Assembly: GCA_938021205.1 (NCBI GenBank)
Contig: CALIGI010000082.1
Location: forward strand, 1,111 to 65,110
Direction: 5' to 3'
Length of the DNA stretch: 64,000 bases
From: an uncultured Pseudanabaenaceae cyanobacterium
GTDB lineage: Bacteria; Cyanobacteriota; Cyanobacteriia; PCC-9006; JAAUQQ01
The first letter of the stretch is position 1. The number at the start of each line of letters is the position of its first letter. Below are positions 8,978 through 62,862 of the stretch, in pieces. Under the pieces are notes generated by a model. That model was not told the origin of the DNA. It saw nothing but the letters and a program-made list of their open reading frames with translations, and did not search any database. A program made the position numbers and the translations under genes.

Positions 8978-11104
8978 ATGCGCTACTCTTCTATCTCTAG
9001 CGATGCTCTCCTCACTTTCATGACGGGCGTTTTGCTGACCAGCAGTCCTGGCTTGGTTCAAGCCCTGGAATTCCCCATTGAGGGGACTGGGATAGATGCG
9101 GCTACCCAAGCTGCTCTTGATGGTTTGGGACTCCAGGCTCCCGACTTTTTGCCCTCGGACAGCTTTGTCCCCGTCATTCTCGCTCCTGAGTTAGCTGCGC
9201 CTGAACTCTCTGAACCGGTGCCCGCTGCTCAAACAGAACCTCCTTCCATCGAACAAGCTCAACAGGCTGAGGCTGATACTGTTGAGCAGATACAGGAGAT
9301 TCAAGCTTCAGAAGCGATTGAGCCTGAGGGTGTCCACCTTCCCTTGGCCGAAGTGTCTGCTGAAATCCTGGCAGAGAGTTTTCTTGCAGAGAATTTTTTT
9401 GCGCAGTCCATTCCGCTACCTCCTGGGACGCCCTCGCTTCCGGCTCCCTTGCCAACACCGGGTGAGCAGGATCGACCGTTTTCGACGGATGAAGTCATTG
9501 ATGGGCCTCAAGCACCTGAGACGCTGCCTGATGAGCTCCCACCTTCCAGCGAGATTTTGCCAACGCCCTCTCCCATTCAACCCGACGATGAAAATGTTGA
9601 GGGTCCTGCCACGATCAATGTCACGGGTTATACCGTTGAGGGCAGCACTATTTTTGATGCGGAGAGGTTAGCTGAAGTTACTGCTCCTTTCACTGGCAAC
9701 GTTTCCTTTGGTCAGTTGCTCCAGGCTCGCTCTGCGGTGACTGAGCTGTATGTGAAGAATGGCTATGTTACCTCCGGTGCCTTCGTTCCGCCTCAAACCC
9801 TAGAAGGTGGCCTGGTCAAAATCCAGGTCCTGGAAGGCAAGCTAGAGGATGTGCGCATCACTGGAAACCAGCGCTTGAAGCCGAGCTATGTGCGCAGTCG
9901 TTTGGAGCGAGCTGGGGCTGAGCCATTGAAGGTGGAGGACTTGCTAGAAGGCTTGAAATTGTTGCAGCTTGATCCGCTCCTGGAAACTATTTCTGCGGAT
10001 CTACAGGCGGGGATTCAGCCTGGCACGAGTTTGCTGGATGTGAAGGTGTCTGAAGTCGATCCCTTTACTGCAACAGTCTCGCTGGACAATGGGCGATCGC
10101 CCAGTGTGGGAAGCTTCCGCCGAAAAATCTCCCTCAATCATGCCAATTTGTTGGGGTATGGTGATGCCCTGAACCTGGCCTACAGCAACACCGATGGCAG
10201 CAATGCTTTGGATTTGGGCTATACCGTGCCCCTCAATGCTAGAAATGGCACCCTGCGTTTTGCCTATGGTCGAACGCGCAGTGAGGTGATCGAGGAGCCC
10301 TTTAACCCGTTAGAAATTTCGGCTAGATCGGTTTACTACGAAGGCACCTATCGCCAGCCTCTATACCAAACGGCTAGTGAAGAATTTGTTTTGGGCTTAA
10401 CTTTTTCTCGTCAGGAAAGCCGCACTGAGCTGGGTTTTGCTGATATTGGTGGATTTCCCCTCTCTCCCGGTGCCGATGAAGATGGCAGAACTAGAATCTC
10501 TGCCCTGCGATTCTTTCAGGAATGGAATAAGCGGAAGAGCAATCAGGTCTTGGCAGCGAGATCCCAGTTGAACCTGGGGACAAATTGGTTTGATTCGAAC
10601 CAAAGCCCCGACGGTGGCCCCGATAGTAATTTCTTCTCCTGGCGTGGCCAGGCTCAGTGGGTGCGTCTGTTGGCTCCCGACACCTTGGCACTGGTGCGGG
10701 GGGATTTGCAATTTGCCGATCGCGTCTTAGTTCCCCTTGAACAGTTTGGTATTGGGGGGCAGAGTAGCGTGCGAGGCTATCGCCAGGATGCGTTGTTAAC
10801 GGATAACGGTTTGCTGGTTTCGGCGGAAGTACGCCTCCCCGTGGCCGTGGATCGGCTGTCCAATTGGGGGACGACGCTACAGGTCGCTCCATTTCTGGAT
10901 TTAGGTCATGGCTGGAATCGGGGGGGGAATAATCAACCGGTGGAAAGGACGCTGGTGGGCACAGGCTTAGGTTTTATTTGGCGTCAGGGCAATAACTTCT
11001 CGGCTCGGGTTGACTGGGGCTTTCCGCTGGTGGATGTGGAGAATGAGGATGATACCTGGCAGGAGAATGGAATTTATTTCTCGGTGAATTACAACCCGTT
11101 CTAA
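8978..11104 (+). CDS. ShlB/FhaC/HecB-family (TpsB) outer-membrane secretion/activation protein
   Basis: Signal-like N-terminus and an acidic/Pro-rich region of about 210 aa. A POTRA-like segment follows: INVTGYTVEGSTIF...KIQVLEGKLEDVRITGN. The C-terminus is a beta-barrel ending in YFSVNYNPF. Confidence 0.8.
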   Translation: MRYSSISSDALLTFMTGVLLTSSPGLVQALEFPIEGTGIDAATQAALDGLGLQAPDFLPSDSFVPVILAPELAAPELSEPVPAAQTEPPSIEQAQQAEADTVEQIQEIQASEAIEPEGVHLPLAEVSAEILAESFLAENFFAQSIPLPPGTPSLPAPLPTPGEQDRPFSTDEVIDGPQAPETLPDELPPSSEILPTPSPIQPDDENVEGPATINVTGYTVEGSTIFDAERLAEVTAPFTGNVSFGQLLQARSAVTELYVKNGYVTSGAFVPPQTLEGGLVKIQVLEGKLEDVRITGNQRLKPSYVRSRLERAGAEPLKVEDLLEGLKLLQLDPLLETISADLQAGIQPGTSLLDVKVSEVDPFTATVSLDNGRSPSVGSFRRKISLNHANLLGYGDALNLAYSNTDGSNALDLGYTVPLNARNGTLRFAYGRTRSEVIEEPFNPLEISARSVYYEGTYRQPLYQTASEEFVLGLTFSRQESRTELGFADIGGFPLSPGADEDGRTRISALRFFQEWNKRKSNQVLAARSQLNLGTNWFDSNQSPDGGPDSNFFSWRGQAQWVRLLAPDTLALVRGDLQFADRVLVPLEQFGIGGQSSVRGYRQDALLTDNGLLVSAEVRLPVAVDRLSNWGTTLQVAPFLDLGHGWNRGGNNQPVERTLVGTGLGFIWRQGNNFSARVDWGFPLVDVENEDDTWQENGIYFSVNYNPF

Positions 11105-18957: not shown

Positions 18958-19794
18958 CTATTGGGCATTTCCCTTAAGGAAGTCCACCAGACTCTCCAGG
19001 AAGCTCTCGCTGAGGTCATCGGCCTCATTCTCAGTGGTTGCTTCACCCATGAGGCTGCGGCTGGCTGCGGCTACCATGGGTACTTCCTCAGCAATGCCTA
19101 CCAAGATGAGGCGGAAGGCGATGCGACGGACTTCATCGAGATCCATGCGCAGTTGTTCAGCAACGCTGGAGAGAGACACCGTTCCGTTGGTAAATTCCCA
19201 CATTTGCCATTCCAGTTTATTGAGCTTGAGGTGGGGCTTACCTTCAATGGCGCTCTCTAAGGTCGAATTGCCCTCCGGCAGTTTCTCTTCTAGGGCATTC
19301 CAGTTCTTTAGGACTCGCAGGGCACCTAGGGTGACCTCTGTGGGCAGCATCATGTGCCCTGTCATCTCCTGCATGGGCATTTTTACGCCGCTCTCAAACT
19401 CAAACTGGCCCTGACTATATTCAAATAGGGCACAGACCTGGCGCATAACCTGGGTGTAAAAGGTTAGCTTGAGCTGCGCTGGACTGACCTGTTCGCGAAT
19501 CTTGAGGTAAACCCCTAGAGGGACGACGAGGGCACTAAATTGTTGGATTTGCTCCTTCGTAATATTTTTCAGAAGGTTCTTGCGATGAAGCAAGCGCAGC
19601 AGACCATTGCCATCGCTGTAGCTGGAGGCGGAGACAATGCGGCCTTTTCGCAGCCAGATGTAGAAACTGCGAGCAGGTTTGCCGTCACCTTGGGCAGTGG
19701 TCTGGAGGGTGAGCTGTCCCGTTTTATTGCCCTGTTCTAGGAACTGAAATAGCTCCGGTAAGGAAAATTCTGCAAGTTGCCCGGTAATGGCCAT
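18958..19794 (-). CDS. PATAN/DUF4388 domain protein
   Basis: N-terminus ITGQLAEFSLPELFQFLEQGNKTGQLTL...FYIWLRKGRIVSA is the DUF4388 pattern, the same fold as the N-termini of the PatA-type regulators at 58403 and 60346. Confidence 0.75.
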   Translation of the reverse strand: MAITGQLAEFSLPELFQFLEQGNKTGQLTLQTTAQGDGKPARSFYIWLRKGRIVSASSYSDGNGLLRLLHRKNLLKNITKEQIQQFSALVVPLGVYLKIREQVSPAQLKLTFYTQVMRQVCALFEYSQGQFEFESGVKMPMQEMTGHMMLPTEVTLGALRVLKNWNALEEKLPEGNSTLESAIEGKPHLKLNKLEWQMWEFTNGTVSLSSVAEQLRMDLDEVRRIAFRLILVGIAEEVPMVAAASRSLMGEATTENEADDLSESFLESLVDFLKGNAQ

Positions 19795-48553: not shown

Positions 48554-49297
48554 GTGACCTATTTCTTGCCTGCAATCTTGACGCTTTTTAATGCTTTGCC
48601 CCTGGGGCTGACTGCTAGGGGGCTGCGTAACTTTGTTGAACGCGGCTCTTGCAAGGTGATTCCGCCCCTGTGCAGCCTGGCCGATAGCCGCTGGATCTCG
48701 TGGAATTTGTTTTTGGCGCTGATTCCTTTGGTGCTGAGCTTCTGGCTGTTTCGTCGTGGGGCTGGGCGGAAGCGATCGCTCCTATGGTGGTCGACCTTTC
48801 TGGCCTATATGGCTTTTTTGCCCAATGCTCCCTATTTGCTGACTGACATTATCCATTTCGTTAAGTCAATCAATTATGGCTATTCCATTTGGGTGATTGT
48901 CTTGTTAGTGTTGCCGATGCATTTCGTGGCGATCGTTGGAGGCTTCCAGGCTTATGTGCTGGCGTTGATTAATCAGCAACATTACTTGGTGCGCCAGGGG
49001 GCGGCTCGCTGGGTTAATCTAGCGGAGCTGATGACTCATGCCCTCTGTGCTGTGGGGATTTACTTGGGTCGTTTTGATCGCCTCAATAGCTGGGATTTGG
49101 TCCAAGATCCCACGGCAGTTTTCTATCGGCTTCTGTATACCCTCACGGCTAAACGACCTGTGCTGGTGACATTCATTACCTTTGTGATTATTACGGTACT
49201 TTACTGGGTGATGAAGCAAATTACCCTGGGCTTAGTGCTGCGTTATCGACAGCTCAAAGCAGGTGATCCCTATGGTTTGAAGGGGACTTCTTTGTAG
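48554..49297 (+). CDS. DUF1361-like integral membrane protein (GTG start)
   Basis: WNLFLALIPLVLS and LPNAPYLLTDIIHF. Multi-pass membrane protein. Confidence 0.55.
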   Translation: MTYFLPAILTLFNALPLGLTARGLRNFVERGSCKVIPPLCSLADSRWISWNLFLALIPLVLSFWLFRRGAGRKRSLLWWSTFLAYMAFLPNAPYLLTDIIHFVKSINYGYSIWVIVLLVLPMHFVAIVGGFQAYVLALINQQHYLVRQGAARWVNLAELMTHALCAVGIYLGRFDRLNSWDLVQDPTAVFYRLLYTLTAKRPVLVTFITFVIITVLYWVMKQITLGLVLRYRQLKAGDPYGLKGTSL

Positions 49298-49346: not shown

Positions 49347-49922
49347 CTAAATCCCTAGTAGCTCGGCCATTACCACAGTCTCCGATTCCCTCAGCGTTGC
49401 AAGCCGTGAGGCAGATAGCTGAGCAGTGGCTTGGCTGTCGACTAGTTGATCGGGATTGAGCAAAAATTGTAGAGGTTGCTCCGCATTGGCCGTCGTCATG
49501 CCATCCACACATTGGATTTCATAGGTCTTTGGCAGGGGCAATAGCTCACTCTCAGCTAGGCGACAGAGGGAGGGGGGTGAATCAATGGGGAGCGTAATGC
49601 GGTGCTCCTGTTGTGTAGTAGGGATTGATAAGGCGGTGATGATCAGAGCAATTTGCTGCCGAGAGGCTTGAGCATGGGAGGGGGAGTCGGGCTCTTCGAT
49701 GCGGTTAAAGATTTGCCGATCTATGGAGACGACTGGCAAGATATCTTCCTGGAAGTTGATGTATCGGAGCGGGCAGCAGTCATGCTCAAAGACGATCGCT
49801 CGCTGAACAGCATCAATGGGTATGAGAAAGCCCATGCCACGCATCTTGAACGTGATGAGCTGTTGCTGGACCTCGACTTTGCGATCGTTGATGCGGGGAA
49901 GGCGAGCAGCGCGGGTGGCCAT
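49347..49922 (-). CDS. CheW-like domain protein (divergent, downstream of cheA)
   Basis: LITFKMRGMGFLIPIDAVQRAIVFE...ILPVVSIDRQIF...IALIIT follows the CheW beta-strand pattern. Confidence 0.6.
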   Translation of the reverse strand: MATRAARLPRINDRKVEVQQQLITFKMRGMGFLIPIDAVQRAIVFEHDCCPLRYINFQEDILPVVSIDRQIFNRIEEPDSPSHAQASRQQIALIITALSIPTTQQEHRITLPIDSPPSLCRLAESELLPLPKTYEIQCVDGMTTANAEQPLQFLLNPDQLVDSQATAQLSASRLATLRESETVVMAELLGI

Positions 49923-50028
49923 GGGTTTTGTGTCAGAAATGGAATGTTAGGGGCAGGGCTTTCCACCTAAAGAAATGCTCAGGCGAGAAAGGGGTGGAGC
50001 GATGCCCCTAGGGAAAATGGATCATGGA

Positions 50029-53000
50029 TCAAACGATTGCGAGTTCCGGCAATGCCTGGGAATTGCCAAACGATGCAGATAGTTCGATCAATTGTTCCAA
50101 GCTTTGCAGCAGTTGAGTTTGCTTGAAGGGCTTGGAGAAGTAATCAGCGGCTCCCAGGCTCATGGCGAGCTGGCGATGCTTGTCTCCGCTGCGGGAGGTG
50201 AGCATGACTACGGGAATGTCCTCGCAGTTTGGGAGGCTCTTGACCTGGGCCAGGAAGCCAAAACCATCCAGGCGAGGCATTTCTACGTCGCTCATGATCA
50301 CATCAGCGGTGATGCCGCTCTGGAGTTGGTCGATCGCATCTTGCCCATCCTTGGCCTGTTCCACGTGGTAACCCGCTTTTTCCAGCGTGATGCTGAGGAA
50401 GCGGCGTACGTTGATGGAGTCGTCGATGACGAGTACCGTACGTTTGTTGCTGATTGCTATGGGGAGGGCCAAGTTTTGCTCATGCAAATCCTGGCGCTGG
50501 GCATCGCGCAATACCCAGCTCATCAGTTTTTCCATTTCCACTAGGGGAACGACGCGGCCATCGCCCAGGACAACGCAGCCAGAGAAGCCCTGGGGTAGAC
50601 TGATTTTGCCTTCTACGGTTCGGGTGGTGACTTCCTGCTCACCCCAATAGCGATCGCATTCAATGGCGTAGGGTTCGTCTCCATGGGTCACGATCAGGGC
50701 GGAGCTTTGATCGATGATGGGAGAGCTTTCTGTTTCTAACTTAATCAGGGGGCGGACGAAGTGGAGCCAGTTCTGAAGGCGTAGTAGGGGAACGGTGTAG
50801 CCCTGCCATTCCAATAGGTCTTGCTCAGCAGCCTGTACAATTTTCTGTTGTTCTAACAACAACATCTCTTCGACGATATTGGCTGGAAACGCCATGACCA
50901 TGCCTTGGCATTCCACGACCAGCACTCGCGTCACCGAAAGAGAAAGGGGCACGGTTAGGGTAAAGGTACTGCCTTGACCGGTCTTGGTTTCGACGGTGAT
51001 GTCTCCTTGGATGTCTCGCAGGTTGCTGCGGACCACATCCATGCCGACCCCTCGACCGGAGAGGCTCGTGACTTGTTCGGCGGTGCTGAAGCCGGGCTCA
51101 AAGATGAGATTGACCAGCTCTTTGTCGCCCGAGACCTCGATTTCGGCAGGCGTCAGGCCCATGCTGAGTACCTTGCTGCGAATCTTCTCTAGGTTGATGC
51201 CTGCACCATCATCTTGGATGGTGATGGCGACTTGGTTGCCGCGATAGCTCGCGCCAATTTCGATATTGCCTTGGGGCGTTTTGCCTTGGGTGATGCGAGT
51301 CTCGCGGTCCTCAATGCCGTGGTCAAAGCAGTTGCGTAGCAGGTGCATGAGGGGATCTTGGAGCGCCTCAATAATGGTGCGCTCAATTAAGGTGTTGCTG
51401 CCCCGGACCTGAAGATCCACCTGTTTGTCATGGGCCATGGAGAGCTCCCGCAGTAGACGAGGGAAGCGATCGGTGATGGCGGACAGAGGGCGCATCCGCA
51501 TCTGGTTCATGCCCACTTGGAGTTGTTGGGCCGTGCGGTTGAGGCTACGAGAGACGGTTTCGGTTTCTCCCAGGGCTAGTTCGATATCGCTGGTCACTTC
51601 CTGGATTTGTACGACGCTGTCGATGATTTCCTGGGAGACGAGGTGCAGTTCGCTATATTGATCCATTTCCAGCAGGTCGAAGCTGTTGGATAGGGACTGA
51701 GTGCTTGGGATGGGGGTTGAGGGGGGTGGGGTCGTGCTTGGGTTTGCAGGGGTGGAGTTGTTGTGGGTGTTGGAAAGTTGTTGGGTGGCACCGCGATCAT
51801 AGGATTGGCGCAGGATGTTGTTTGCCTGGTCTAGGGACTTAACCCGTTGGTTGAGTAGGCCAAATAAGGTGCTGAGGTAGCCTAGTTGTATGCCCAAGCC
51901 GTTGCGATCAGTGGTGAGTTCGCCGAGGAGTTCTCCGAGGCGCTCTAACTTGCGCACGGAGACGCGGATGCTGGTGTCTTGTCCGGTGGTCGAGCTATTG
52001 TCATGTTCGTCAGTTGAGCTATTGTCAGCTTCTGACTCCGTCAATATGCTGGAGGTGAGCTGGGCGGCTTCTTGGGCGATCGCGTTGTGGTTCACCCCAG
52101 GTTCTTGAGGTGGTTCTGCTGTGGTGGGATTGGTGCTGTTAAAGTCGGCTAGCTCCTCTAGGTCAAAGGCTTCGTCGTTGAGAAAAATGCTGACTAACGT
52201 CTCTGCATCAAGGGCTGTCGGTTCTGAGCTTTCGGCTTCTGACGGCAGATCCGTCGCCGATGCCGGGAGAGGGCTAGGTTCAATTTTGGGTCTAGTCCCT
52301 GGTTCTGAGGATGCTTGGGGCGCTTCTAGGTCGTTCCCATTGGCCTGTTGAAGATCAGGTTGCTCTGTGCTTGAGAACGCGGGAGATTCTTCTAGGGGCA
52401 GATTGTCCGTGATTACTTCGTCTGCTTCTGGGGATATGACTGCTGCGGCTGGGGCTAAGGCGATCGCTTCAAGGCTAAAGTCCTCTGGCGTCATGCCCTC
52501 AAAGAGGCTGTCTAGCACGGCTTCATCAGCAGAAGCGATCGCCTCCACGGATATCTCAGGGGTGGGAGTGGTGGCGGTGGGAGCAGAGTCGTGGGTTGTA
52601 TTGTGCTGTGGGCTTGGTGATTCTGGGGACTGAGATTCTGGGGGCTGGGTATCCACAAGTCCCCCTAGGTTCAATAGATCCGCGAGGGAACTTTCAGTGT
52701 CTAAGCAGTCAGCTAGACCTGAGAAATTGGATGGTTCAATGCTCTCTCCCAAGTCTTCGGGGAAAAGGTCTTGAATTTGAGGGGCTGGCGTTGGTGTCTC
52801 TGATGATTCAGCTAGACTAGTTGTGTCAGCATTTTTGCCTGGCTGATCGGTCTCTTGGGTTGATGTGATCGCTGCTTTGATCGCTTGAGGCAAGAGAACA
52901 GTTTCCGGAATGAGCCCCGCTTGACCCACCAGGACGAGCCCATGGCTGCGTCGCAGGGGCTTGAGCACAGCTTGACAAACCTCCACGAGGTCACTTTCAG

Positions 53001-53661
53001 GGCAGTCGGTACAAAGCTGTAAACCGTGGTTACAGAGGGCGATGAACGGGCTGATTTCTAGCATTTCCCCCAGGCTGCCCATTTCTGCACAGGCGATGAG
53101 AAATTCCTGGCGGAGTAACGGGAGATCAGGATCCTGGATTGCCCCTTCAAGACGATCTAGGCAGGGACCAATTTCACTTTCAAACAGCATGACGCCCATG
53201 TCGCCACCCGCATCGGCCGCGAGACTGGCCTGCTCGTCAGCAGCAGTGGGGTCACCGAGGCGATCATATAGTTGGTCAAGCAACGGCTGGGTGTTGGCTT
53301 CAAGCCAGCCTGCATCAATACCGGAGCGCTCCCGGTAAAGCTCCAACATCTGGCTCATGCGATCCACTGCGCTGAGGAATAGGCGTTCGAGTTCACCTTC
53401 GGGCTCATAGCGTCCTCCCTGGAGGACTTTGAAGAAATCCTCCAAGCGATGGGCGACTTGGCTGAGTTCATGGAAGCCCATTAAGGCGGCTCCACCCTTG
53501 ATGGAATGGGCGGCTCGCAAGATTCCATCAATGGCTTCACGGGTGAGTTTTTGTTCGCCCAGTCCCAATAAGGCTGACTCGATGGTGTCCAGATACTCCT
53601 GGGCTTCCTCCAGGAACTGGAGGCGCACTAGCCATTCTTGATCTGACATTTGCTCCGACAT
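50029..53661 (-). CDS. hybrid CheA-type histidine kinase (Hpt, long acidic/Pro-rich linker, dimerisation, HATPase, CheW-like, REC); PilL/HmpE-like
   Basis: Hpt AAHSIKGGAALMG, N-box HLLRNCFDHGIE, G1 DDGAGI and G2 GRGVGMDVV. C-terminal REC: VLVIDDS...IMSDVEMPRLDG...MLTS...FSKPF. Confidence 0.9.
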   Translation of the reverse strand: MSEQMSDQEWLVRLQFLEEAQEYLDTIESALLGLGEQKLTREAIDGILRAAHSIKGGAALMGFHELSQVAHRLEDFFKVLQGGRYEPEGELERLFLSAVDRMSQMLELYRERSGIDAGWLEANTQPLLDQLYDRLGDPTAADEQASLAADAGGDMGVMLFESEIGPCLDRLEGAIQDPDLPLLRQEFLIACAEMGSLGEMLEISPFIALCNHGLQLCTDCPESDLVEVCQAVLKPLRRSHGLVLVGQAGLIPETVLLPQAIKAAITSTQETDQPGKNADTTSLAESSETPTPAPQIQDLFPEDLGESIEPSNFSGLADCLDTESSLADLLNLGGLVDTQPPESQSPESPSPQHNTTHDSAPTATTPTPEISVEAIASADEAVLDSLFEGMTPEDFSLEAIALAPAAAVISPEADEVITDNLPLEESPAFSSTEQPDLQQANGNDLEAPQASSEPGTRPKIEPSPLPASATDLPSEAESSEPTALDAETLVSIFLNDEAFDLEELADFNSTNPTTAEPPQEPGVNHNAIAQEAAQLTSSILTESEADNSSTDEHDNSSTTGQDTSIRVSVRKLERLGELLGELTTDRNGLGIQLGYLSTLFGLLNQRVKSLDQANNILRQSYDRGATQQLSNTHNNSTPANPSTTPPPSTPIPSTQSLSNSFDLLEMDQYSELHLVSQEIIDSVVQIQEVTSDIELALGETETVSRSLNRTAQQLQVGMNQMRMRPLSAITDRFPRLLRELSMAHDKQVDLQVRGSNTLIERTIIEALQDPLMHLLRNCFDHGIEDRETRITQGKTPQGNIEIGASYRGNQVAITIQDDGAGINLEKIRSKVLSMGLTPAEIEVSGDKELVNLIFEPGFSTAEQVTSLSGRGVGMDVVRSNLRDIQGDITVETKTGQGSTFTLTVPLSLSVTRVLVVECQGMVMAFPANIVEEMLLLEQQKIVQAAEQDLLEWQGYTVPLLRLQNWLHFVRPLIKLETESSPIIDQSSALIVTHGDEPYAIECDRYWGEQEVTTRTVEGKISLPQGFSGCVVLGDGRVVPLVEMEKLMSWVLRDAQRQDLHEQNLALPIAISNKRTVLVIDDSINVRRFLSITLEKAGYHVEQAKDGQDAIDQLQSGITADVIMSDVEMPRLDGFGFLAQVKSLPNCEDIPVVMLTSRSGDKHRQLAMSLGAADYFSKPFKQTQLLQSLEQLIELSASFGNSQALPELAIV

Positions 53662-53851
53662 CTGAATCTGGCATCCTAAAACGGGGTGGGCGAAAACGGG
53701 TGAGCGAAGATTTGACTAGGCGCGCATTGGAGGCATAGGACTGGGCGGCGATCGCCCTAGCCCAATTGTCAAAAGGGAGTCCAGAACTCGACAATCCATG
53801 GCCATGGGGATGGCCTCTCAGTCTCGAGTTCCTACCTTGGCGAGGCATAAA

Positions 53852-56704
53852 TTAGCCTGCACCTTCCTCCACCTTGAATGCATTAACCGAACATTGAAGC
53901 TGCTCGGTGATTTCCGCTGTCGCCTGCAAAGAATCTGAGACATCTCGGGAGGCATGGGAGGTATCGGTGGAGACCTGGGCTACATCAGCCATCATCTGCT
54001 TGACCTGCTCAGATACGGTGGCTTGGGTAATGGTTTCATTCGAAATCAGTTGAAAGGTGCTGTTGACCTCGCGGGAGACCTCCAGGACTTGCTCCAAACT
54101 CTGTTTGGCCTCTTCCACAGATCGCGTGCCTTCAACGACTTGGCTGGTGCTGGTTTCCATTGCTTCTACAACGTTGCTGGTTTCAGTTTGAATCGCCGCA
54201 ATGATTTGTTCAATTTCCTTGGTTGCTAGGGCAGACTGGGCAGCTAGGGCACCCACTTCTTCAGCAACTACAGCAAAGCCTCGACCTTCTTCACCAGCAC
54301 GAGCCGCCTCGATACCGGCATTAACGGCCAGGAGGTTGGTCTTCAAGGCAATTTGGTTGATCAACTCAACCACTTTAGAAATCTGCTGGGAGGATTCGCC
54401 TAGGCGCTTCACCTGTTTCGCGGTGTCCGCTACGGTTTGGCGAACCTGGGAAATACTCTTTACCGTGCTTTCCATGGCTTCACCACCAGCTTTGGCAGTG
54501 GCCTCAGCTACTTGGGAGGCTTGGGCGGCTTCGGTGGCTTGTTTCGCAACGTTTTGGAGACTGCTAGTCATTTCCTCAATGGAGGCCAGGGTGACATTGA
54601 TTTGAGTGGCCTGCCCAATGGCGTTTTGGGACAACTGACGAATAGATTCGCCATCGCTGTTTACTGAGTCATTAACCTGGGTGGATGCCTGTTTCACCTG
54701 GGTTACAACGTCGCGTAGGTTTTCCACAATGGCATTGAAAAAGTCAGCCACAATGCCAATTTCACCATCGGTGATTTGAGCTCGAACGGTGAGGTCACCG
54801 CTACTGGCTCCTTCTACATCAGAGAGCAGCGTGAGTAGTTCTCGCTGAAGGTTATCGTTCTGCTGCTTGGCTTGCTTGGCTTGCAGTTGGGCTTGCAAGA
54901 AGCTTTCCACGGAGTTGAGTGAAAGGCCCAAGCGGTTGGCAATTTGGGTGAGCTCGGTAATGTTGTCTTGAGTCCAATCTTGAGCTTCGTCGCAGGTTTG
55001 GAGGCTGAGCCAGCCATAACACTGGTTGCTCACCATGACGGGTGCCCAGAGGCAGGACCGCACTTTTAAGGCTTGGAGCTCCTCTTTGAGTTCAGTGGGA
55101 AAGTCTGCTGCGGCAAGCTGTCTGTAGGCCTGGCAGCTCTGGTGCTCTTGGAATTGGGTAAATTGGTCGCTGGATAGGGCTGAGAGGTCTTGACCTCGGG
55201 CGTTGCTCAAGTGGGGTTTGACGGCTTCAGCGAGGATACTGCTACTGCCGTTGGGACCTGTGATTCGAGCAAAGATGACGCGATCGCCTCCCATCTGCTG
55301 CTGAATCTCCTGGAGGGCTTTCTCCAGCGGACCCGCTAACTCCTCGGTGTTTTGCAATCGAGTAATCTCGGCTAGCATTGTCTCCAAACGCGTATTAGAT
55401 TCCTGAGTCGTCAAGAAGCTTTGGAGCTGGCTACTCATTTGGTTGATGTTCTGGCCGAGCAAGACCAGCTCGTCTCCCTCATCCGGAACAGACAAGCGAG
55501 TCTCAAATTGACCTAAGCCAATTTTTTCTACTACCTTCGCTGCCTGAATGACCGGTTTTGTCGCTTGGCCCGCGAGATAAACCGCAATGAGACTGATGAT
55601 TCCGGTTACCGCCGCAGTCCCCAACAGCAGAGTGATGAGCAACTGGCGCTGAGACGCAAAAATGATCTCCTTATCAGTGCTGATCATGGATGACCACTCT
55701 AAGTCTGGGAGATCAGGCGTGGATGAGAATGGGTAAAAGCTCGCCAGCTGATCACTGCTGCTACTCTGATTCACGGTGGAAACGCTGTCTGCTTGGCGCG
55801 CCTGCCATAGCGCTTCGAGTCCCCCAAAGCCTTGGGTCAGCGGGATGCCAACTTGCTTTGAATCCAACGCTCCAATGATGGACCCATGGGCATCAATAAT
55901 GTAGGGCTGCTCACCATTTTTATTGAAGGTCGACAGAATTGGATCGAGGGCACTGGTTGGCATGCGGCTTCGTGTCACGCCAATCATTTCGCCGGTTTCG
56001 CTATCAAAGATTGGAGCTGCAAAATAGATCGCTACCTCACCTGTTGTTGGGGAAATTTGCGGTTGGCTAATGTAGGGCTTTTGTGTCTTAAAAACTGTTT
56101 GAATGTAATCTCGATCTGCATGGTTATCGAGGATTTTGCCATCCGTAGACTGGGCAATGACATCCCCCTGTAAATCGAAGGCCGCGATACTGGTGTATAC
56201 GCCGTAAGTCTGACGGTAAAATTCAAGTTGCGCCTGTTTTTCCTCGAGCGTCAGACTGTTGCGTGCGCTAAACGTGGATAGAAAAGGAAGCTGAGCGATT
56301 ACCTGAATATTGTTATAGCGATCAACCATAAAGGCATTGGTACGCTCAGCCATGCCGGTGGCTCGCGCAAGGGAGGCTGCGGTTAGCTTTTTTTCCAGTG
56401 CATTTGCACTGAGATTGTAGGCAAAGCCACCTAGCGTCAGCGTGGGTAGAGCCGCTAGGAGCATGGCTGCCAGCGTCGCCTTTCCCTTCAAACCTAGGCG
56501 TTTTTGGGGAGCATTTTGGCTACGCATAGCTCGTCCCTGATTGAGGGAGGCTTGGGGGAGCTTGGAAGCGTTGCTCAGGTTTGTAACCACATCCGTTGCA
56601 ATGGCTTGAAACTCCTCTGGAGCAGGAGTGAGTGGGTCTAATTCTGGAATGTTCGCCGTTGTATCTGTAGCTTTATCTGGGTGGACTTCGTTGGAGTTAA
56701 CCAT
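53852..56704 (-). CDS. methyl-accepting chemotaxis protein (2 TM, periplasmic sensor, HAMP, GAF, MCP signalling domain); PilJ/HmpD-like
   Basis: Hairpin-tip motif [30 protein letters not shown] segments [19 protein letters not shown] and [23 protein letters not shown]. The GAF lacks a CH bilin motif. Confidence 0.9.
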
Positions 56705-57092
56705 GTCGTAAAACCTTGAGTGGAATAACTATTCAAGAAAAATTGGGAAACGCAAAAAGCGCTAAACGAGATTGAGCTACGCCAGGATTTTGTCCTCAGG
56801 CATGGCCAAACAAGTGTTCTGAAATAAGTGATTTAGGGGGCCGTCCCTCACATGCCTAAACAGACGTTCTCCCCCCAGGAAGGCTCTGCTAGGTCTCTGA
56901 GTGAGCCAGACGGGAGGAGACTCTGCCTGGCAGTTCATAGCCTGTTGCTCAGATCCATTGGGACATTCGTACTCTTTCGAAGGAGCTAAGGCAGACGTTG
57001 ATCTGAATAGCAATGGTTTTAACCAGTGAGACTATTGCCATTACCAACTTTGCGGCTTGCCCTGAGGTGCACCCATGATTATCCATAGTCTT

Positions 57093-57111
57093 TTTCCACA
57101 AACTGTGGAAA
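57093..57111. promoter_or_regulatory. perfect 8-3-8 palindrome in the cheW-mcp spacer
   Basis: TTTCCACA-AAC-TGTGGAAA. Confidence 0.4.
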
Positions 57112-57159
57112 GCTTGAAATAACTGTGCAAAAACTGGAAAAACCTTGGGGTAAATAGAG

Positions 57160-57828
57160 CTATGCTTGATAGCCGCTGTAGCTTGAAATCGCTACTGCAT
57201 CTAGGACTAGAAGCTTTTCATCATTTTGTGGAATACAGCCCTGTATGTAGGGGATGAGCCCTGGAGAAAGCTCGTTGTCGATAGCGGATTGAATCAACTC
57301 TGTGGAAAATCGGGTAACGCCTTGAACTTCTTGGACAGCTAGGCCGATGGGCTTATTGTTTACTCTTAGGATTGCCAAGTGGTATTCGGGCGATCGCGGA
57401 TCTAAAGGCGTCAGGCCAAATAACTGAGGCAAATCCAATACCCAGAAGATTCGACTCCGGTGATTGAGCAAGCCCATTACAGCAGCAGGCATATTGGGCA
57501 TGACCGTCAAACGCTGTTGAGGGATGACCAATACTTCTTGGGCCTGGTCAGTATTGATAGCAGCCAAAGTGTTGTCATCCAATCGCAGGCGGATATGGGG
57601 ATTACCAGTGGACTTGGTGCTGGATCCTCCCTGGAGCGCAACGGTGGGAATGGAAGCCAAGGTAATCTCTGTGGCTAAGGCAACGGTGTCGTTAACGGCA
57701 GTGTCTCCCACTGTTGTTGTCTCTGCGATCTCTTTGTTGCTGACAGCTTCACTTCCATCCCACTTTGCTAGCGCCAAGTCTGTTGCTAAGGCTTCTTGTT
57801 CAAGCCCATCATGCGTAGAATTCACCAT
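57160..57828 (-). CDS. CheW-like coupling protein (PilI/HmpC-like)
   Basis: QEVLVIPQQRLTVMPNMPAAVMGLLNHRSRIFWVLDL...LAILRV...IGLAVQEVQGV. ATG 57828 avoids overlap with cheY. Confidence 0.8.
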   Translation of the reverse strand: MVNSTHDGLEQEALATDLALAKWDGSEAVSNKEIAETTTVGDTAVNDTVALATEITLASIPTVALQGGSSTKSTGNPHIRLRLDDNTLAAINTDQAQEVLVIPQQRLTVMPNMPAAVMGLLNHRSRIFWVLDLPQLFGLTPLDPRSPEYHLAILRVNNKPIGLAVQEVQGVTRFSTELIQSAIDNELSPGLIPYIQGCIPQNDEKLLVLDAVAISSYSGYQA

Positions 57829-57835
57829 GGTTGCC

Positions 57836-58198
57836 TTACCCCACGACGGAAGTAACTGCATTGACGATCTCTTCCTTGCTGTAGGGCTTGGTGATATAGA
57901 TTTTGATGCCTTGCTTCATGCCCCAGAGGCGATCGAGCTCCTGGTTCTTGGACGTACAAGCAATGACAGGCAAAGTCTCAGTTTTGGGATTCTTCTTGAG
58001 GTTGCGGCACAGCTCCAGCCCGCTCATGCCAGGCATCACAAGGTCGGTCACCACCAAGTCAGGCTCAATGGACTCTAGCTTTTGCAAAGCTTCATTGCCG
58101 TTGCTGGCATCAACAACGAGGTGACCTGCTTCCTGGAGGTAACCGGTCATGAGTTCGCGTTCGGAGGCGGTGTCTTCGACGAGGAGAATAGTAGCCAT
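57836..58198 (-). CDS. CheY-like single-domain response regulator (PilH/HmpB-like)
   Basis: ILLVEDT, LVVTDLVMPG, ACTSK and ITKPY. ATG 58198 is preferred. Confidence 0.9.
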   Translation of the reverse strand: MATILLVEDTASERELMTGYLQEAGHLVVDASNGNEALQKLESIEPDLVVTDLVMPGMSGLELCRNLKKNPKTETLPVIACTSKNQELDRLWGMKQGIKIYITKPYSKEEIVNAVTSVVG

Positions 58199-58402
58199 GG
58201 TTGATCGAGTTTTAATTTGAATGCTGGGATGTGGAGAGAGGTGATGCGGTGAGCCAAGCCCTGCAAAGGCTTTCAAAGTTGTGGGTTTTGCCCAAGACAA
58301 ATCAAACTGACTCAGAGGCAAGCTATTGGATGACCTTTGCTGCAAAGGCCACGCGATAACCTGCCCAATGCAGGAAATACTTAAAACTTGCAGTTAATGA
58401 AC

Positions 58403-59722
58403 TTAATCGCTTAAGTAACGTAGGACAATTTGGAGCAAGTCTTTTTGAGTGAAGGGTTTAGTTAGGTAATCTGTTGTGCCAGCCATTTTGGCCCGGGCAC
58501 GGTCTAGGAGGCCTTTGTTACCAGTTACCATTACGACAGGGATATGCTTGAGCAAAGACGATTTTCGAATCATCGTGCAAACCTGATACCCATCCAAGGT
58601 GGGCATACTGGCATCCAATAGAATTAGATCTGGTTTGATTGAGATGATCTTCATCAACGCCTTTTGAGAGTCGTCGATCATCGTGATTTCAAAAATCTCT
58701 TGCTGAAGAAATCGCTGAATTTCTCGCAGCACCGTAGGACTGTCATCAATGCAGACAATTTTCCAGGTGCGTTGTTGGTTGCTGTCACGATTGACGTTAA
58801 GGAAGCCACTATCCGATGTGGAGCCATTACTGAGCGGGCCTGAACGAGGACCTCCACTAGAGGAAGGCGCACTGGGTGGGGATGCCTTGATGTAGGACTG
58901 GTTCAAGCGAGGTAGTTGATCATGGGGACTCAGCGGCTCCCGCAGGATAATGATGCCTTCACTAATCAGGGGCGAAAAGCGGCGGCAAAGGGCCAGTTCA
59001 TCCTGTTGCAGCAGCATGGCAAGCTGTCGGAAGTTAAACCCCAGCAATAGGCGAGACAGCTTGTCAGCCATATGAGGTGAAAGCTTTTGCCGAGCACGTT
59101 CTTCCCCAATCAGATAGGGACGCTGATAAGGGGAGCTAATGCGGGGGGCCATTGCATTCCACTGGTCCAGACGTTCCCACATCCGAGGCCAGAGTATGTC
59201 CAGTTCAAGTTGACAAATGCTGGGGAGCTCACCCATGGAATTGGTCTGGACTTCGTAATTCCCTTCAGGCAGTAGCAGATAGCTTTCGAGCACTTCTGCT
59301 GACATCTTGCTGGCTAAATTGGCTAAAGAAGCCCCATCACAATGCCCTTGATTGACTAGCCAGCGCAAGGCTTGATAGTCGGCTGTGAAGTTTTCAGGTG
59401 GCGTTTCCTGCTCCATCTGTCTGACCTGACTCCGCAGTTCATTGTTGGAGAGGTCAGACATTTGAGGTAATCCTTTGAGGTGGCGTTCTAAGCGCTCAAA
59501 GGGGTCTGCACTGTTGGTGGCATAAACAAGTTGGCCCCGTTGGACGTAGATGAACCACTCAAGAGTGGAATCTGCTACATGCAAACAGCCGCTTGTTATT
59601 GCCGTGAGTTGGTCAACTAGCTCTGCAGGAGAGCAATGGGTTGGGGCGATACAGGTTTCCTGCATTAAAGGTAATCCTTGCACTGGAGCGTTTATGGCAC
59701 CCTGCTCTGCAAGTAGAAACAA
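58403..59722 (-). CDS. PatA-type response regulator (PATAN N-terminal domain plus canonical REC); PilG/PixG/HmpA-like
   Basis: PATAN: LEWFIYVQRGQLVYATNSADPFERLERHL. REC: VCIDDS, LILLDASMP, MVTG and LTKPF. Confidence 0.85.
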   Translation of the reverse strand: MFLLAEQGAINAPVQGLPLMQETCIAPTHCSPAELVDQLTAITSGCLHVADSTLEWFIYVQRGQLVYATNSADPFERLERHLKGLPQMSDLSNNELRSQVRQMEQETPPENFTADYQALRWLVNQGHCDGASLANLASKMSAEVLESYLLLPEGNYEVQTNSMGELPSICQLELDILWPRMWERLDQWNAMAPRISSPYQRPYLIGEERARQKLSPHMADKLSRLLLGFNFRQLAMLLQQDELALCRRFSPLISEGIIILREPLSPHDQLPRLNQSYIKASPPSAPSSSGGPRSGPLSNGSTSDSGFLNVNRDSNQQRTWKIVCIDDSPTVLREIQRFLQQEIFEITMIDDSQKALMKIISIKPDLILLDASMPTLDGYQVCTMIRKSSLLKHIPVVMVTGNKGLLDRARAKMAGTTDYLTKPFTQKDLLQIVLRYLSD

Positions 59723-60286
59723 ACCTGACTCGAATAATTAGTGAGAGATCTCAGCGTTACTTTCGTTGGACTATTTGAGGTTCAGCGAAGAGATTATGCT
59801 TGATCTTTCTGTTTGGTGGAACTGCTATTGAAGCCTTTTGTAAAGAGGAACACAATAGCAGGCCATTAGTTGATGCTTAGTTTTAAGATGCCCGTATTTA
59901 GCTCAATATCTCTATCGTTTGAATGATCTAATTTTATATCGTTTTTGGTTGGCTTTATAGGTGGCTGATATTCCTGCAGTCCATTAATCTGTAAGGCCCA
60001 ACCTCTGATGATTGTTTGCTCTGTGAGATTTTGATGGCTCTCCTGGAACAATTGCAAATGTTGAATATGAACATCTCTAGCCCTCTAAAAGAGCATTAAC
60101 CCTTCAAAATTTGTTAATCCACTCACCCTTTAAATACTAGGCCCTAGGAGAGCCTTTTGATTTGTCATAAGGTGTAGAGATTTTAAGCATATTCTATGTT
60201 GCTCTAATGACTTATCTAAGGTCTCTAAAAAGATACTTCTTGTTGTGAATCAAGTCTCATTGTCTTGATTCACCAGGCGTAATAAA

Positions 60287-60310
60287 CCCCATCACATATT
60301 TTGTATGGGG
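60287..60310 (-). terminator. weak intrinsic terminator after the PatA-like paralogue
   Basis: CCCCAT / ATGGGG stem with a 12-nt loop. The minus strand continues TTTATT. Confidence 0.35.
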
Positions 60311-60345
60311 CTTCAGTGGGGGATGTAGAGTCAGGTTACGAAGAG

Positions 60346-61653
60346 TTAGTTACTCAAGTGTCGGAAAATGAGCGCTAGCAAATCCTTTGCACTGTAAGGG
60401 CTTGCTAACGTATCCGTTGCACCAGCCATTTTGATGCGGGCACCGTCAAATAGTCCTTTCTTAGAGGTCACTAAAATGATGGGCGTATTTTTTAGTAGAG
60501 GGGACTTTCGCATCAGGGTACAAAGCTCATAGCCATCCACTACGGGCATGTGAGCTTGGAGAAAAACTAAGTCTGGAGGATTGGTTGTGAAGGCTGATAA
60601 GGCCTGGGTGGGGTCTGGGTGCTGCTCAATTGCAATCTCAGCATCGGCAATGAGTGGACTAATTGCATTGACGAGTATTTCGCCTGGATCAACGCAAGCC
60701 AGCCGCCATGTTGCTGTGGTCGTGCTATCAATACCAAGGGTATCTTCAGACGGCTCTGCTGAGGCTAGGGGGCCAATTTGAATGGCGGTGTGCTCTGGTT
60801 CGTCATTCTCAGCTTCAAAGGGGTCCTGATAACTTTGCCTTGCTGGTTTGAAGAAGCTAGTGGGGGTGTCGCTGTTGGGGTAAGGCAGTTTGTCGAAGGG
60901 GCTTAAGGGCTGGCGCAGCAAGATAATCTGATCCGCCATGAGGGGATAGAGGCGCTGGGCAAAGAGCAACTCGTCTTGGCCGACGATGGTACCCAGTTGA
61001 CGGAAGTTGAAGCCGACGAGCAGTTTGCTGAGCTGCTTGACTCGGCGCTCCTTGAGGCGAGTTAGGGCCATGCTCTTATTGGCGAGGTAAGGGCGCTGGT
61101 AGGGCGAAAGTAAGTGGGGAGCAAGACTATGCCAGACTTTGAGGCGTTCTTCCACTCGCTGAATAAAGGGCTCTAGGTTGAGCCGGCAATAGATTGGGAG
61201 GTTAACGAGGGAGCATCGCTCGACCTTGTAGTTGGCTTCGGGGAGCTGAATATAGCCTTCCATTACCTCCGCTGTAATCTTGCTGGCAAGGGTTCCAGCT
61301 GTGATGGAGTCTACGTACAGCTCGCTGACAGCCCAGGAGAGTGCCCCGTAGTCGCCACAGATTCCTGTTGTGTTGTATTGGGAGCGGTAGTCTGCTTCGT
61401 GGCCAAAGCGGTTGCGCATGTCATTGCGTACTTCTTTGGTAATGCTAGGGACAATGTCTGCGAGACCTCTTAGGTAGCGTTCCAAGCGTTCGAAGGGATC
61501 AGCACTGTTGCTTGCATAGATCAGCTGTCCCTCTCCAAAATAAAGGTGCCAGGTAATGGCGCGATCGCTGATGCGCACATAGCTACTACTCATGTCCGCT
61601 ACATCAAGCAGCGCTCTGGGATTGCAATATTCAAATGCAACGGCGGTTTCCAC
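60346..61653 (-). CDS. PatA-like protein with degenerate (pseudo-)receiver domain
   Basis: PATAN: ITWHLYFGEGQLIYASNSADPFERLERYL. Receiver: ACVDPGE (versus IDDS), LVFLQAHMP (Asp replaced by Gln) and LASPY (Lys replaced by Ser). Confidence 0.85.
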   Translation of the reverse strand: METAVAFEYCNPRALLDVADMSSSYVRISDRAITWHLYFGEGQLIYASNSADPFERLERYLRGLADIVPSITKEVRNDMRNRFGHEADYRSQYNTTGICGDYGALSWAVSELYVDSITAGTLASKITAEVMEGYIQLPEANYKVERCSLVNLPIYCRLNLEPFIQRVEERLKVWHSLAPHLLSPYQRPYLANKSMALTRLKERRVKQLSKLLVGFNFRQLGTIVGQDELLFAQRLYPLMADQIILLRQPLSPFDKLPYPNSDTPTSFFKPARQSYQDPFEAENDEPEHTAIQIGPLASAEPSEDTLGIDSTTTATWRLACVDPGEILVNAISPLIADAEIAIEQHPDPTQALSAFTTNPPDLVFLQAHMPVVDGYELCTLMRKSPLLKNTPIILVTSKKGLFDGARIKMAGATDTLASPYSAKDLLALIFRHLSN

Positions 61654-61965
61654 AGGCGAATCCTATTCTTAGCGGTTGCGCAATATAGAGACCTACGAGA
61701 GACCCCACGATTTCGGTAAACCCTTGGACCCAGATAGAAGCTGCGATGGGAAAAGACGGAATGTTGTCTCAACCCTTTGGTGATGTCGCACTCCTTTAAT
61801 ATGCCCGGAGTCGGTGGGAACTAAACCCTCTAACTGAGGACGGTTTGAGAGTGATTCTACACAGAACTCTGAATGTGTGAAACTTTAGACTGAATTAAAT
61901 GGGAGTGGATCCAAATCTTGTCTGGAATGCTTTGCATCTGGTCTCAATTGATATTTTGCTCTACT

Positions 61966-62012
61966 ACAGGGTGAAGACTCTCTGGGAGATTTGGCGACAG
62001 GGTGAAGACTCT
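61966..62012. repeat. 16-nt perfect direct repeat, 31-bp period
   Basis: ACAGGGTGAAGACTCT at 61966-61981 and 61997-62012, in the divergent promoter region. Confidence 0.85.
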
Positions 62013-62247: not shown

Positions 62248-62862
62248 GTGGCCGATTTGTCACCAGAAGATTTTGAGAGGCTTCAGGCCAAGAATAGGCC
62301 TGAAAATGTTGCCTTGTCCTGCCCTGTGGATCTTTCCACAACGGCGGAAGGGCGGCAGCGTGATTTATGCGCGTCTGTGACGATCCCCTGTGGGACAGAG
62401 ACGATTTGGCAGATTTTGACCAATTATGATTGTCTGGCGGACATTATTCCGAGCTTGGCCGTGAGCCGCCGGTTGCCCCATCCTGATGGAGATTCTGCTG
62501 GTGACAGGGGCAAGGTCCGCTTAGAGCAGGTTGGCTCTCAGAAGATTTTGAAGGTCAATTTCTCTGCTCGGGTTGTCCTGGATATGGAAGAGGACTATCC
62601 CAGTGCGATCCATTTCGCCATGGTCGAAGGGGATTTTAAGCATATGAAAGGCTCTTGGAAGCTGGAGGCACTGGAGAGTGCGGACGATCGCCCCCAGACT
62701 CGCCTGTCCTATTGTTTGAGCATTTTGCCCAAACGCACCATGCCGGTTCGTATGGTGGAAAGCCGGTTGAGCCAGGATCTTGCGATTAATTTGCAGGCGA
62801 TTTATCAGCAGGCGATCGCCAGCACTGCTGCTGGTGATGTTGAGCTATCCCCTGTGGTTTAG
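62248..62862 (+). CDS. SRPBCC (cyclase/dehydrase-like) family protein
   Basis: IWQILTNYDCLADIIPSL, FSARVVLDMEE and MVEGDFKHMKGSWKLE. Confidence 0.6.
   Translation: MADLSPEDFERLQAKNRPENVALSCPVDLSTTAEGRQRDLCASVTIPCGTETIWQILTNYDCLADIIPSLAVSRRLPHPDGDSAGDRGKVRLEQVGSQKILKVNFSARVVLDMEEDYPSAIHFAMVEGDFKHMKGSWKLEALESADDRPQTRLSYCLSILPKRTMPVRMVESRLSQDLAINLQAIYQQAIASTAAGDVELSPVV

Follow-up and report, generated by a model that had tools for sequence, protein, structure and literature searches.

The window analysed here, 64,000 nucleotides of DNA from an uncultured Pseudanabaenaceae cyanobacterium, contains on its minus strand a tandem pair of open reading frames (ORFs), 60346..61653 and 58403..59722, both encoding PatA-type proteins in which a PATAN region is joined to a receiver domain. 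The second is a canonical regulator that heads an operon for PatA, CheY, CheW, an MCP (methyl-accepting chemotaxis protein) and CheA. The first, the subject of this report, keeps the receiver fold and has consistently lost four of the six residues of the phosphorylation signature. We consider it probable (at roughly 0.72) that it encodes a functional PatA-type regulator whose pseudo-receiver the operon's CheA-type kinase is unable to switch, and which, by analogy with PixE and LsiR of Synechocystis, likely regulates the pilus motor in the manner of those two proteins. PatA-type regulators are the output of cyanobacterial chemotaxis-like systems steering type IV pili, and the question addressed by this gene is how the receiver gates PATAN.

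A receiver domain without its phosphorylation residues

The gene, its domains and the codons at issue are as follows.

60346..61653, minus strand: pseudo-receiver PatA-type gene, 435 amino acids from a GTG start (ORF and translation)
61653-60904, minus strand: PATAN region, approximately amino acids 1-250
Amino acids 251-314: disordered linker, with a predicted local distance difference test score (pLDDT) below 50 for residues 259-314 (AlphaFold2)
60711-60349, minus strand: receiver, amino acids 315-435 (Pfam Response_reg and AlphaFold2 domains)
60685..60687, minus strand: Pro323 codon, in place of the second Asp of the acidic pocket (CheY Asp13); the preceding Asp322 (Asp12) is kept (alignments)
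60556..60558, minus strand: Gln366 codon, at the phospho-acceptor position (CheY Asp57) (CheY alignment, AlphaFold2, orthologues)
60409-60411, minus strand: Thr415 codon, in place of the aromatic switch residue Tyr106 (sequence, alignments)
60400..60402, minus strand: Ser418 codon, in place of the conserved Lys (CheY Lys109) (sequence, alignments)

The two adjacent PatA-type proteins are homologous far beyond chance, with 39% identity over 438 columns along their full lengths (BLASTP, E=1e-108), and their motifs align in register: CIDDS, LILLDASMP, LTKPF and MVTG of the canonical copy correspond to CVDPG, LVFLQAHMP, LASPY and LVTS of its paralogue, and in the PATAN region YATNSADPFERLERHL corresponds to YASNSADPFERLERYL. 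When positions are mapped by MAFFT alignment with Escherichia coli CheY, D12, D13, D57, T87, Y106 and K109 fall on D322, P323, Q366, T396, T415 and S418, such that only Asp322 and Thr396 are retained from the receiver signature. In the same alignment D,D,D,T,K are all present in the canonical neighbour and in the 120-residue CheY-like protein of the next gene. An earlier note on this DNA had proposed the ORF, quoted these motifs, and claimed the loss of the acceptor Asp, one pocket Asp and the Lys with retention of the Thr; the ORF is real, each motif is where the note placed it, and the CheY alignment and AlphaFold2 model agree with the losses, with the replacement of Tyr106 being an additional substitution that it had not named.

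The AlphaFold2 model (mean pLDDT 76, with receiver blocks at about 70-86) shows a regular (beta-alpha)5 receiver in which beta3 comprises residues 362-366 (LVFLQ) and Q366 lies at its C-terminal end; neither the model nor the CheY alignment has an alternative Asp at the acceptor position or the end of beta3. Foldseek superimposes the domain on solved receivers with template modelling (TM) scores of about 0.9 and root-mean-square deviations of 1.4-1.7 Å, the matches including the FrzS pseudo-receiver 2i6f, and the Pfam Response_reg profile (PF00072) scores 56.9 bits, above the cut-off of 30.2 bits (88.5 bits for the canonical neighbour).

Because the acceptor Asp, the metal-binding Asp, the phosphate-binding Lys and the aromatic switch are all lost, the pseudo-receiver is predicted not to be switchable by the CheA of the neighbouring operon, and the protein would be non-phosphorylatable in vivo. 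That it is still a switchable response regulator, phosphorylated through a non-canonical residue or donor, is very unlikely; the retained residues at the Asp12 and Thr87 positions would be in keeping with such a role, but the acceptor is consistently missing, along with one metal ligand, Tyr106 and the phosphate-contacting Lys, the end of beta3 offers no Asp in the model, and in PixG an Asp-to-Ala change at the acceptor is by itself enough to abolish phosphotransfer (PMC11181946).

Orthologues and distribution

A search of 5.8 billion proteins returned only seven full-length orthologous clusters, at 90-55% identity, plus one split copy; the matches that followed, at 38-41%, were orthologues of the canonical neighbour. 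All of the orthologues share the motifs V/I-D-P-(G/D), F-(L/V)-Q-(A/T) and L-(A/D)-S, and the pattern D-P-Q-(T/S/L)-S is fixed in 8/8, down to 55% identity: Gln at the acceptor position, Pro at the Asp13 position and Ser at the Lys109 position occur in every one, so that the acceptor Asp is absent from all eight, and within this pattern the Thr87 position varies, being Thr in the window's protein, Ser in P0010 and Leu in the RM1_1_8 copy. The GTG start and the N-terminus VETAVAFEYC are kept in seven orthologues. A residue survey of 134 full-length PatA-type representatives places this pattern in context. Canonical residues (intact D,D,D,T/S,K) are present in 112, the D-P-Q-(T/S)-S pattern in seven, all of the pseudo-receiver clade, and about 15 have other, unrelated degeneracies; the pattern is absent from the other 127.

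The named carriers are uncultured Pseudanabaenaceae metagenome-assembled genomes (MAGs) and 'Synechococcales cyanobacterium RM1_1_8', the remainder being metagenome contigs. Within the GTDB family (eight species in three genera) the pseudo-receiver copy is confined to the genus of the window, where four of the five genomes have it; the fifth is 68% complete. The source genome is itself a 4.2-Mb MAG, 79% complete, encoding about a dozen PATAN proteins, and among those read only the pseudo-receiver gene and one on contig C33 have degenerate receivers.

The C33 protein (locus L015, minus strand, a 456-residue frame) is a second PatA-type protein with a differently degenerate receiver, in which beta1 is followed by Asp-Ser, the acceptor is replaced by His and the Lys is retained; it forms a long branch in the tree. 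A separate, well-supported PatA-type clade of Pleurocapsa-like proteins (P0027, P0028, P0029, P0069 and P0078) varies at the acceptor (Asn, Glu, Ser or Asp), has Gly or His at position 87, and is another independent loss of phosphorylation residues.

Probable origin from an old tandem pair

The gene contexts of PatA-type copies at this locus form a series, listed here from left to right.

L023, L024: SRPBCC gene, then one canonical PatA-CheY-CheW-MCP set
L022: SRPBCC gene, upstream PatA (canonical residues, with PATAN and receiver in split ORFs), downstream canonical PatA, CheY-CheW-MCP-CheA
Window, L001, L002, L003, L019, L021: SRPBCC gene, pseudo-receiver PatA, canonical PatA, operon
L017, L018: SRPBCC gene, pseudo-receiver PatA, DUF1361 gene, with the operon of about 10 kb absent

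L022 is the complete 6.1-Mb genome of a sister genus in which both copies are canonical; a further genus has just a single copy. Its upstream PatA (9001-10313) consists of a PATAN-only ORF of 283 amino acids and an overlapping 154-residue receiver ORF with canonical residues, which may be a real split gene or an indel error of long-read sequencing. The same genome encodes a third, partly degenerate PatA-type protein, P0023 (Gly12, Met87). In L017 and L018, which are Logan contigs with distant orthologues, the segment corresponding to window 49347-59722 is replaced by gaps of only 137-345 bp between the pseudo-receiver and DUF1361 genes, without remnants, and the absence of the operon there is a clean deletion or relocation.

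In a maximum-likelihood tree the pseudo-receiver clade (100/100) groups with the canonical upstream copies (95/90), and the gene next to it in the window falls in a separate clade of downstream copies (96/92). At 1.15 changes per site, the stem of the pseudo-receiver clade exceeds the neighbouring internal branches in length about tenfold. An approximately unbiased (AU) test rejects a clade of pseudo-receiver copies with the neighbours from the window's lineage, although this grouping was chosen with the tree already in view, which makes the p value of 0.0155 indicative only. The tree, together with this indicative test, rejects a recent duplication of the adjacent gene. By position and by phylogeny, the pseudo-receiver copy corresponds to an older 'upstream' copy, which related genera retain in canonical form, and from the tree, the AU test and the gene-context series it follows that the duplication is older than the genus. 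Our reading is that the upstream member of an old tandem hmpA/pilG-like pair was the ancestor of the pseudo-receiver gene, and that in the window's genus this copy saw a burst of change, concentrated on the alpha1-beta2-alpha2 face of the receiver, before purifying selection froze it. These intermediate arrangements are rare, and they serve to date and to order the steps of the transition.

Selection and remodelled surfaces

Ratios of nonsynonymous to synonymous divergence (dN/dS) were calculated by the Nei-Gojobori method for the window against the two genomes nearest to it, with dS at about 0.8-1.3.

Pseudo-receiver domain: 0.006-0.008 (dS about 1.25)
Receiver of the canonical paralogue, same genome pairs: 0.002-0.009
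PATAN region of the pseudo-receiver copy: 0.04-0.06
Linker of the pseudo-receiver copy: 0.06-0.14

Purifying selection on the degenerate receiver is as strong as on the canonical one, which argues for a functional pseudo-receiver and not a decaying copy; the fold is retained under selection despite the lost active-site residues, as is characteristic of pseudo-receivers. The earlier note's inference of a phosphorylation-independent PATAN protein is therefore sustained by fixed losses, structure prediction and strong constraint, that is, at the level of sequence, predicted structure and evolution. The locus amounts to a natural experiment in which a receiver lacking four of the six signature residues is constrained to the same degree as the phosphorylatable sister domain, and from this equal constraint it follows that the domain must have another role, for example in binding a partner or in holding PATAN in one state.

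The loss of catalytic residues could also mark a decaying duplicate or incipient pseudogene with no function of its own, and the RM1_1_8 copy, which is frameshifted and has degenerated further in its receiver (Thr87 to Leu and Pro110 to Gln), would fit such a course. We find this hardly credible, given that the frame is intact in seven of the eight orthologues, that dN/dS is 0.006-0.06 across the domains at saturating dS, that the gene is kept where the neighbouring operon is gone, and that the start codon, the leader and the position of the terminator (see below) are conserved; a dS of about 1 excludes the close orthologues being recent transfers of one allele. The dN/dS values and the intact frames rule the pseudogene reading out.

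The distribution of change over the receiver is uneven, as seen from the share of positions at which the consensus of the pseudo-receiver clade equals the canonical consensus.

alpha1: 0.20
beta2: 0.17
alpha2: 0.18
alpha3: 0.58
alpha4: 0.78
alpha5: 0.50

Inside the clade, conservation is 0.74-0.96 in every receiver element. The alpha1 helix and the neighbouring loops form the main docking surface of receivers for kinases and Hpt domains. The remodelling of alpha1-beta2-alpha2 would fit a release from the kinase, and the retained alpha4-beta5-alpha5 side would fit an ongoing role in protein-protein or interdomain contacts. The alpha1-alpha2 face is a pointer to the kinase-docking surface, presumably free to change once docking was no longer needed.

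The same pattern bears on the suggestion of the earlier note that the protein could compete with, scaffold or localise the canonical paralogue. On such a reading the protein, as a decoy or scaffold unable to take a phosphate, would bind the Hpt/P2 region of CheA or pair with the canonical paralogue as a heterodimer, tuning chemosensory signalling and not the pilus motor. The gene adjoins the operon in six loci, its alpha4-beta5-alpha5 region and alpha3 stay near the canonical consensus, and self-interaction of and mutual competition among Synechocystis PatA-type proteins have been discussed (bioRxiv 10.1101/2021.06.11.447907; PMC11181946). However, the alpha1 face, at which canonical receivers dock, is the most remodelled, and the orthologues in L017 and L018 persist with no operon beside them, which weakens such a role as a necessary one. 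Because the docking face is the most altered and the gene survives the absence of the operon, we regard a decoy or scaffold as improbable, and favour a PatA-type regulator that is independent of the kinase.

Putative expression signals and a conserved leader

Three non-coding elements flank the pseudo-receiver gene.

60284..60313, minus strand: terminator-like hairpin with UUUAUUA behind it (AAGCCCCAUAC...GUGAUGGGGUUU, then AUUA), 33 nucleotides past the stop codon
59666..60345, minus strand: AT-rich spacer of 680 bp between the two PatA-type genes, the presumed promoter region of the canonical operon
61654..61845, minus strand: conserved non-coding leader or promoter region upstream of the pseudo-receiver gene (alignments of orthologous loci)

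The gene had been credited by the earlier note with its own terminator and placed upstream of an AT-rich control region. The second point is borne out by a GC content of 0.374 at 59750-60249, against about 0.50 in the flanking genes. The first stands in part: the hairpin folds with a centroid energy of -14.1 kcal/mol and a z score of only -1.4, and a consensus terminator scan makes no call after the stop codon, the loop exceeding the limit of the scan; strong hairpins of unrelated sequence, two of them textbook terminators, immediately follow the stop codon at four orthologous loci (L001, L002, L019 and L021). Because hairpins are conserved in this position and spacers of 516-850 bp precede the canonical copy in the same four loci, it is plausible from these sequence features that the pseudo-receiver gene forms a separate transcription unit.

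The leader of about 190 nucleotides is nearly invariant in five orthologues, though the gene's own synonymous sites approach saturation (dS 0.8-1.3), and it is weaker or absent ahead of the canonical upstream copies (L022, L023). Its conserved blocks include GGTTTAGTTC-N18-TATTAA and GGGTCTCTC-GTAGGTCTCT-TATTGCGC...AAGAATAGGATTCGCC, and the leader has a candidate -35/-10 pair, TTTAGT-N18-TATTAA, as well as a direct repeat, GGTCTCT-N5-GGTCTCT. The leader has no Rfam match and no covariation, RNAalifold giving just a 10-pair hairpin without compensatory change, and a structured RNA is unsupported on both counts; it is possible that the leader is a conserved protein-binding or promoter sequence. 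A further direct repeat, GAGTCTTCACCCTG, with two copies 31 bp apart, is located at 61966-62012 (minus strand) in the divergent promoter region between the SRPBCC and PatA genes; L002 keeps one copy at the corresponding position (9678-9691), and L001 has near-copies.

Proposed function and relationship to known systems

We propose that the pseudo-receiver gene is transcribed on its own, and that its PATAN region would be the output, binding the type IV pilus motor PilB/PilC by analogy with PixE, LsiR and also PixG of Synechocystis. Activity may be set by protein amount or transcription, as for LsiR, or by a partner on the conserved pseudo-receiver, as in the PixD-PixE pair, and not by phosphorylation. 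The PATAN domain alone is the output of this class and binds PilB1/PilC, and that of PixE is by itself enough for phototaxis reversal (bioRxiv 10.1101/2021.06.11.447907).

Several points weigh against this proposal or limit its reach. First, the PATAN profile (PF14332, DUF4388/PatA_N) scores 15.5 bits in the pseudo-receiver protein, below the cut-off of 25 (the canonical neighbour, at 46.9 bits, is above it). Because residues 2-260 are nonetheless about 45% identical to the neighbouring protein and the protein nests within PatA-type clades, its PATAN membership rests on homology and not on the profile threshold; the motifs YA-NS-DPFERLER, SPYQRPYL and GFNFRQL are common to it and the canonical PatA-type proteins. 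Second, the PATAN region of the pseudo-receiver clade departs from the canonical copies at 40-60% of consensus positions, and for this reason and the low profile score its binding partners may have changed. Third, the pilus-motor target is extrapolated from Synechocystis proteins belonging to another PatA subclade. Fourth, a tree with the pseudo-receiver clade as the sister group of every downstream-type copy is not rejected by the AU test (p=0.11). Fifth, the RM1_1_8 orthologue has a frameshift between PATAN and receiver, which may be a sequencing error since the assembly coverage is just 5.8x. Lastly, the carriers are uncultured MAGs and metagenome contigs throughout, and the gene is known from sequence alone.

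Orphan PatA-type regulators have arisen repeatedly by duplication of chemosensory PatA genes, and several have lost phosphorylation residues, as reported by Han et al. (bioRxiv 10.1101/2021.06.11.447907). The closest parallels are PixE (Slr1693) and LsiR (Slr1214) of Synechocystis sp. PCC 6803, which also combine PATAN with a receiver regarded as phosphorylation-independent, originated by PatA-type duplication from a chemosensory operon, and bind PilB1/PilC through their PATAN output, as we propose for the pseudo-receiver protein. These two derive from a Tax2-type gene and are located away from chemosensory operons (Han et al., bioRxiv 10.1101/2021.06.11.447907), whereas the pseudo-receiver gene derives from the upstream tandem copy at a PatA-CheY-CheW-MCP-CheA locus and is mostly still beside the operon; its substitution set of Pro13, Gln57, Thr/Ala106 and Ser109 is found in no other clade among the 134 representatives. 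As to orphan status in the sense of Han et al., the gene adjoins the operon in the window, set off by the hairpin and the 680-bp AT-rich spacer, and is isolated in L017 and L018.

PixG, PilG and HmpA, which head chemotaxis-like operons, share the architecture and family of the pseudo-receiver protein, whose nearest relatives in the tree are proteins of this kind. Unlike that protein, PixG depends on its acceptor Asp: it must be phosphorylated at Asp326 by its CheA, PixL, in order to localise and act, and PixE is taken to be non-phosphorylatable (PMC11181946). The eponymous PatA of Anabaena/Nostoc sp. PCC 7120 is likened to the pseudo-receiver protein by description, having the same architecture, but its role is in heterocyst patterning and not in a pilus locus. 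Its receiver is described as dispensable in passages of two sources, a gene truncated to lack the receiver complementing a patA mutant (bioRxiv 10.1101/2021.06.11.447907; PMC11181946). FrzS of Myxococcus xanthus (PDB 2i6f/2gkg), among both the structural and the sequence matches, likewise has a receiver fold that is free of phosphorylation and regulates type IV pilus motility and polarity; it shares 21% identity with the pseudo-receiver (Foldseek), the relationship going no further than the receiver fold. FrzS is not known to carry a PATAN domain, and has its receiver fused to a coiled coil.

The class and its rise by duplication are already known (Han et al., bioRxiv 10.1101/2021.06.11.447907), and our literature search for this specific tandem pseudo-receiver found nothing beyond the general statement in that work. 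New here are a clade with a fixed four-residue loss, its descent from the upstream tandem member, the intermediate arrangements and the conserved leader; the practical value is limited, as the class has been described and the carriers are uncultured. We speculate, while thinking it rather unlikely as a whole, that the present-day genomes of one small Pseudanabaenaceae family preserve every step to kinase independence, from a single canonical gene through a tandem canonical pair and a dead upstream copy with a remodelled docking face to an orphan that survived the loss of the operon, and that the orphan pseudo-receiver would control pilus polarity through the leader of about 190 nucleotides, as a new regulatory element, and not through the kinase.

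The neighbouring operon and flanking genes

The genes around the pseudo-receiver gene are as follows.

62248..62862, plus strand: SRPBCC (Polyketide_cyc) gene, divergent; conserved to the left of the upstream PatA copy in all contexts observed
58403..59665, minus strand: canonical PatA-type regulator, the 'downstream' copy, 420 amino acids from an ATG (MQETC), with intact D,D,D,T,K
57836..58198, minus strand: single-domain CheY-like receiver, 120 amino acids from MATILL (orthologues also 120 amino acids)
57160..57861, minus strand: CheW (Pfam CheW, 1.3e-23)
53852..56704, minus strand: MCP with dCache, HAMP, GAF and MCP-signal domains (Pfam)
50029..53661, minus strand: hybrid CheA with Hpt, HATPase_c, CheW and C-terminal receiver domains
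49347..49922, minus strand: divergent CheW-like ORF, the last gene of the operon (Pfam CheW 2.4e-4, below the cut-off)
48554..49297, plus strand: DUF1361 gene, convergent, bounding the operon on the right; in L017 and L018 it comes immediately after the pseudo-receiver gene

The longest ORF of the canonical copy starts at a TTG at 59722 (439 amino acids), and the database form, P0016, has 420 amino acids. Upstream of the pseudo-receiver gene there is also an SLH-domain gene. The operon's gene order matches that of cyanobacterial PatA-CheY-CheW-MCP-CheA systems controlling type IV pili; a family search with named control genomes for the subtype (Tax1, Tax2 or Tax3/Hmp) gave no usable loci, and the label 'Hmp/Pil-like' for this operon is a provisional one based on gene order and domain content. 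The MCP of the operon has both a dCache domain, which is periplasmic, and a GAF domain, which is cytoplasmic. Elsewhere in the window, at 18958-19794 (minus strand), there is a stand-alone PATAN/DUF4388 protein of 278 amino acids (PF14332, 93 bits) without a receiver domain.

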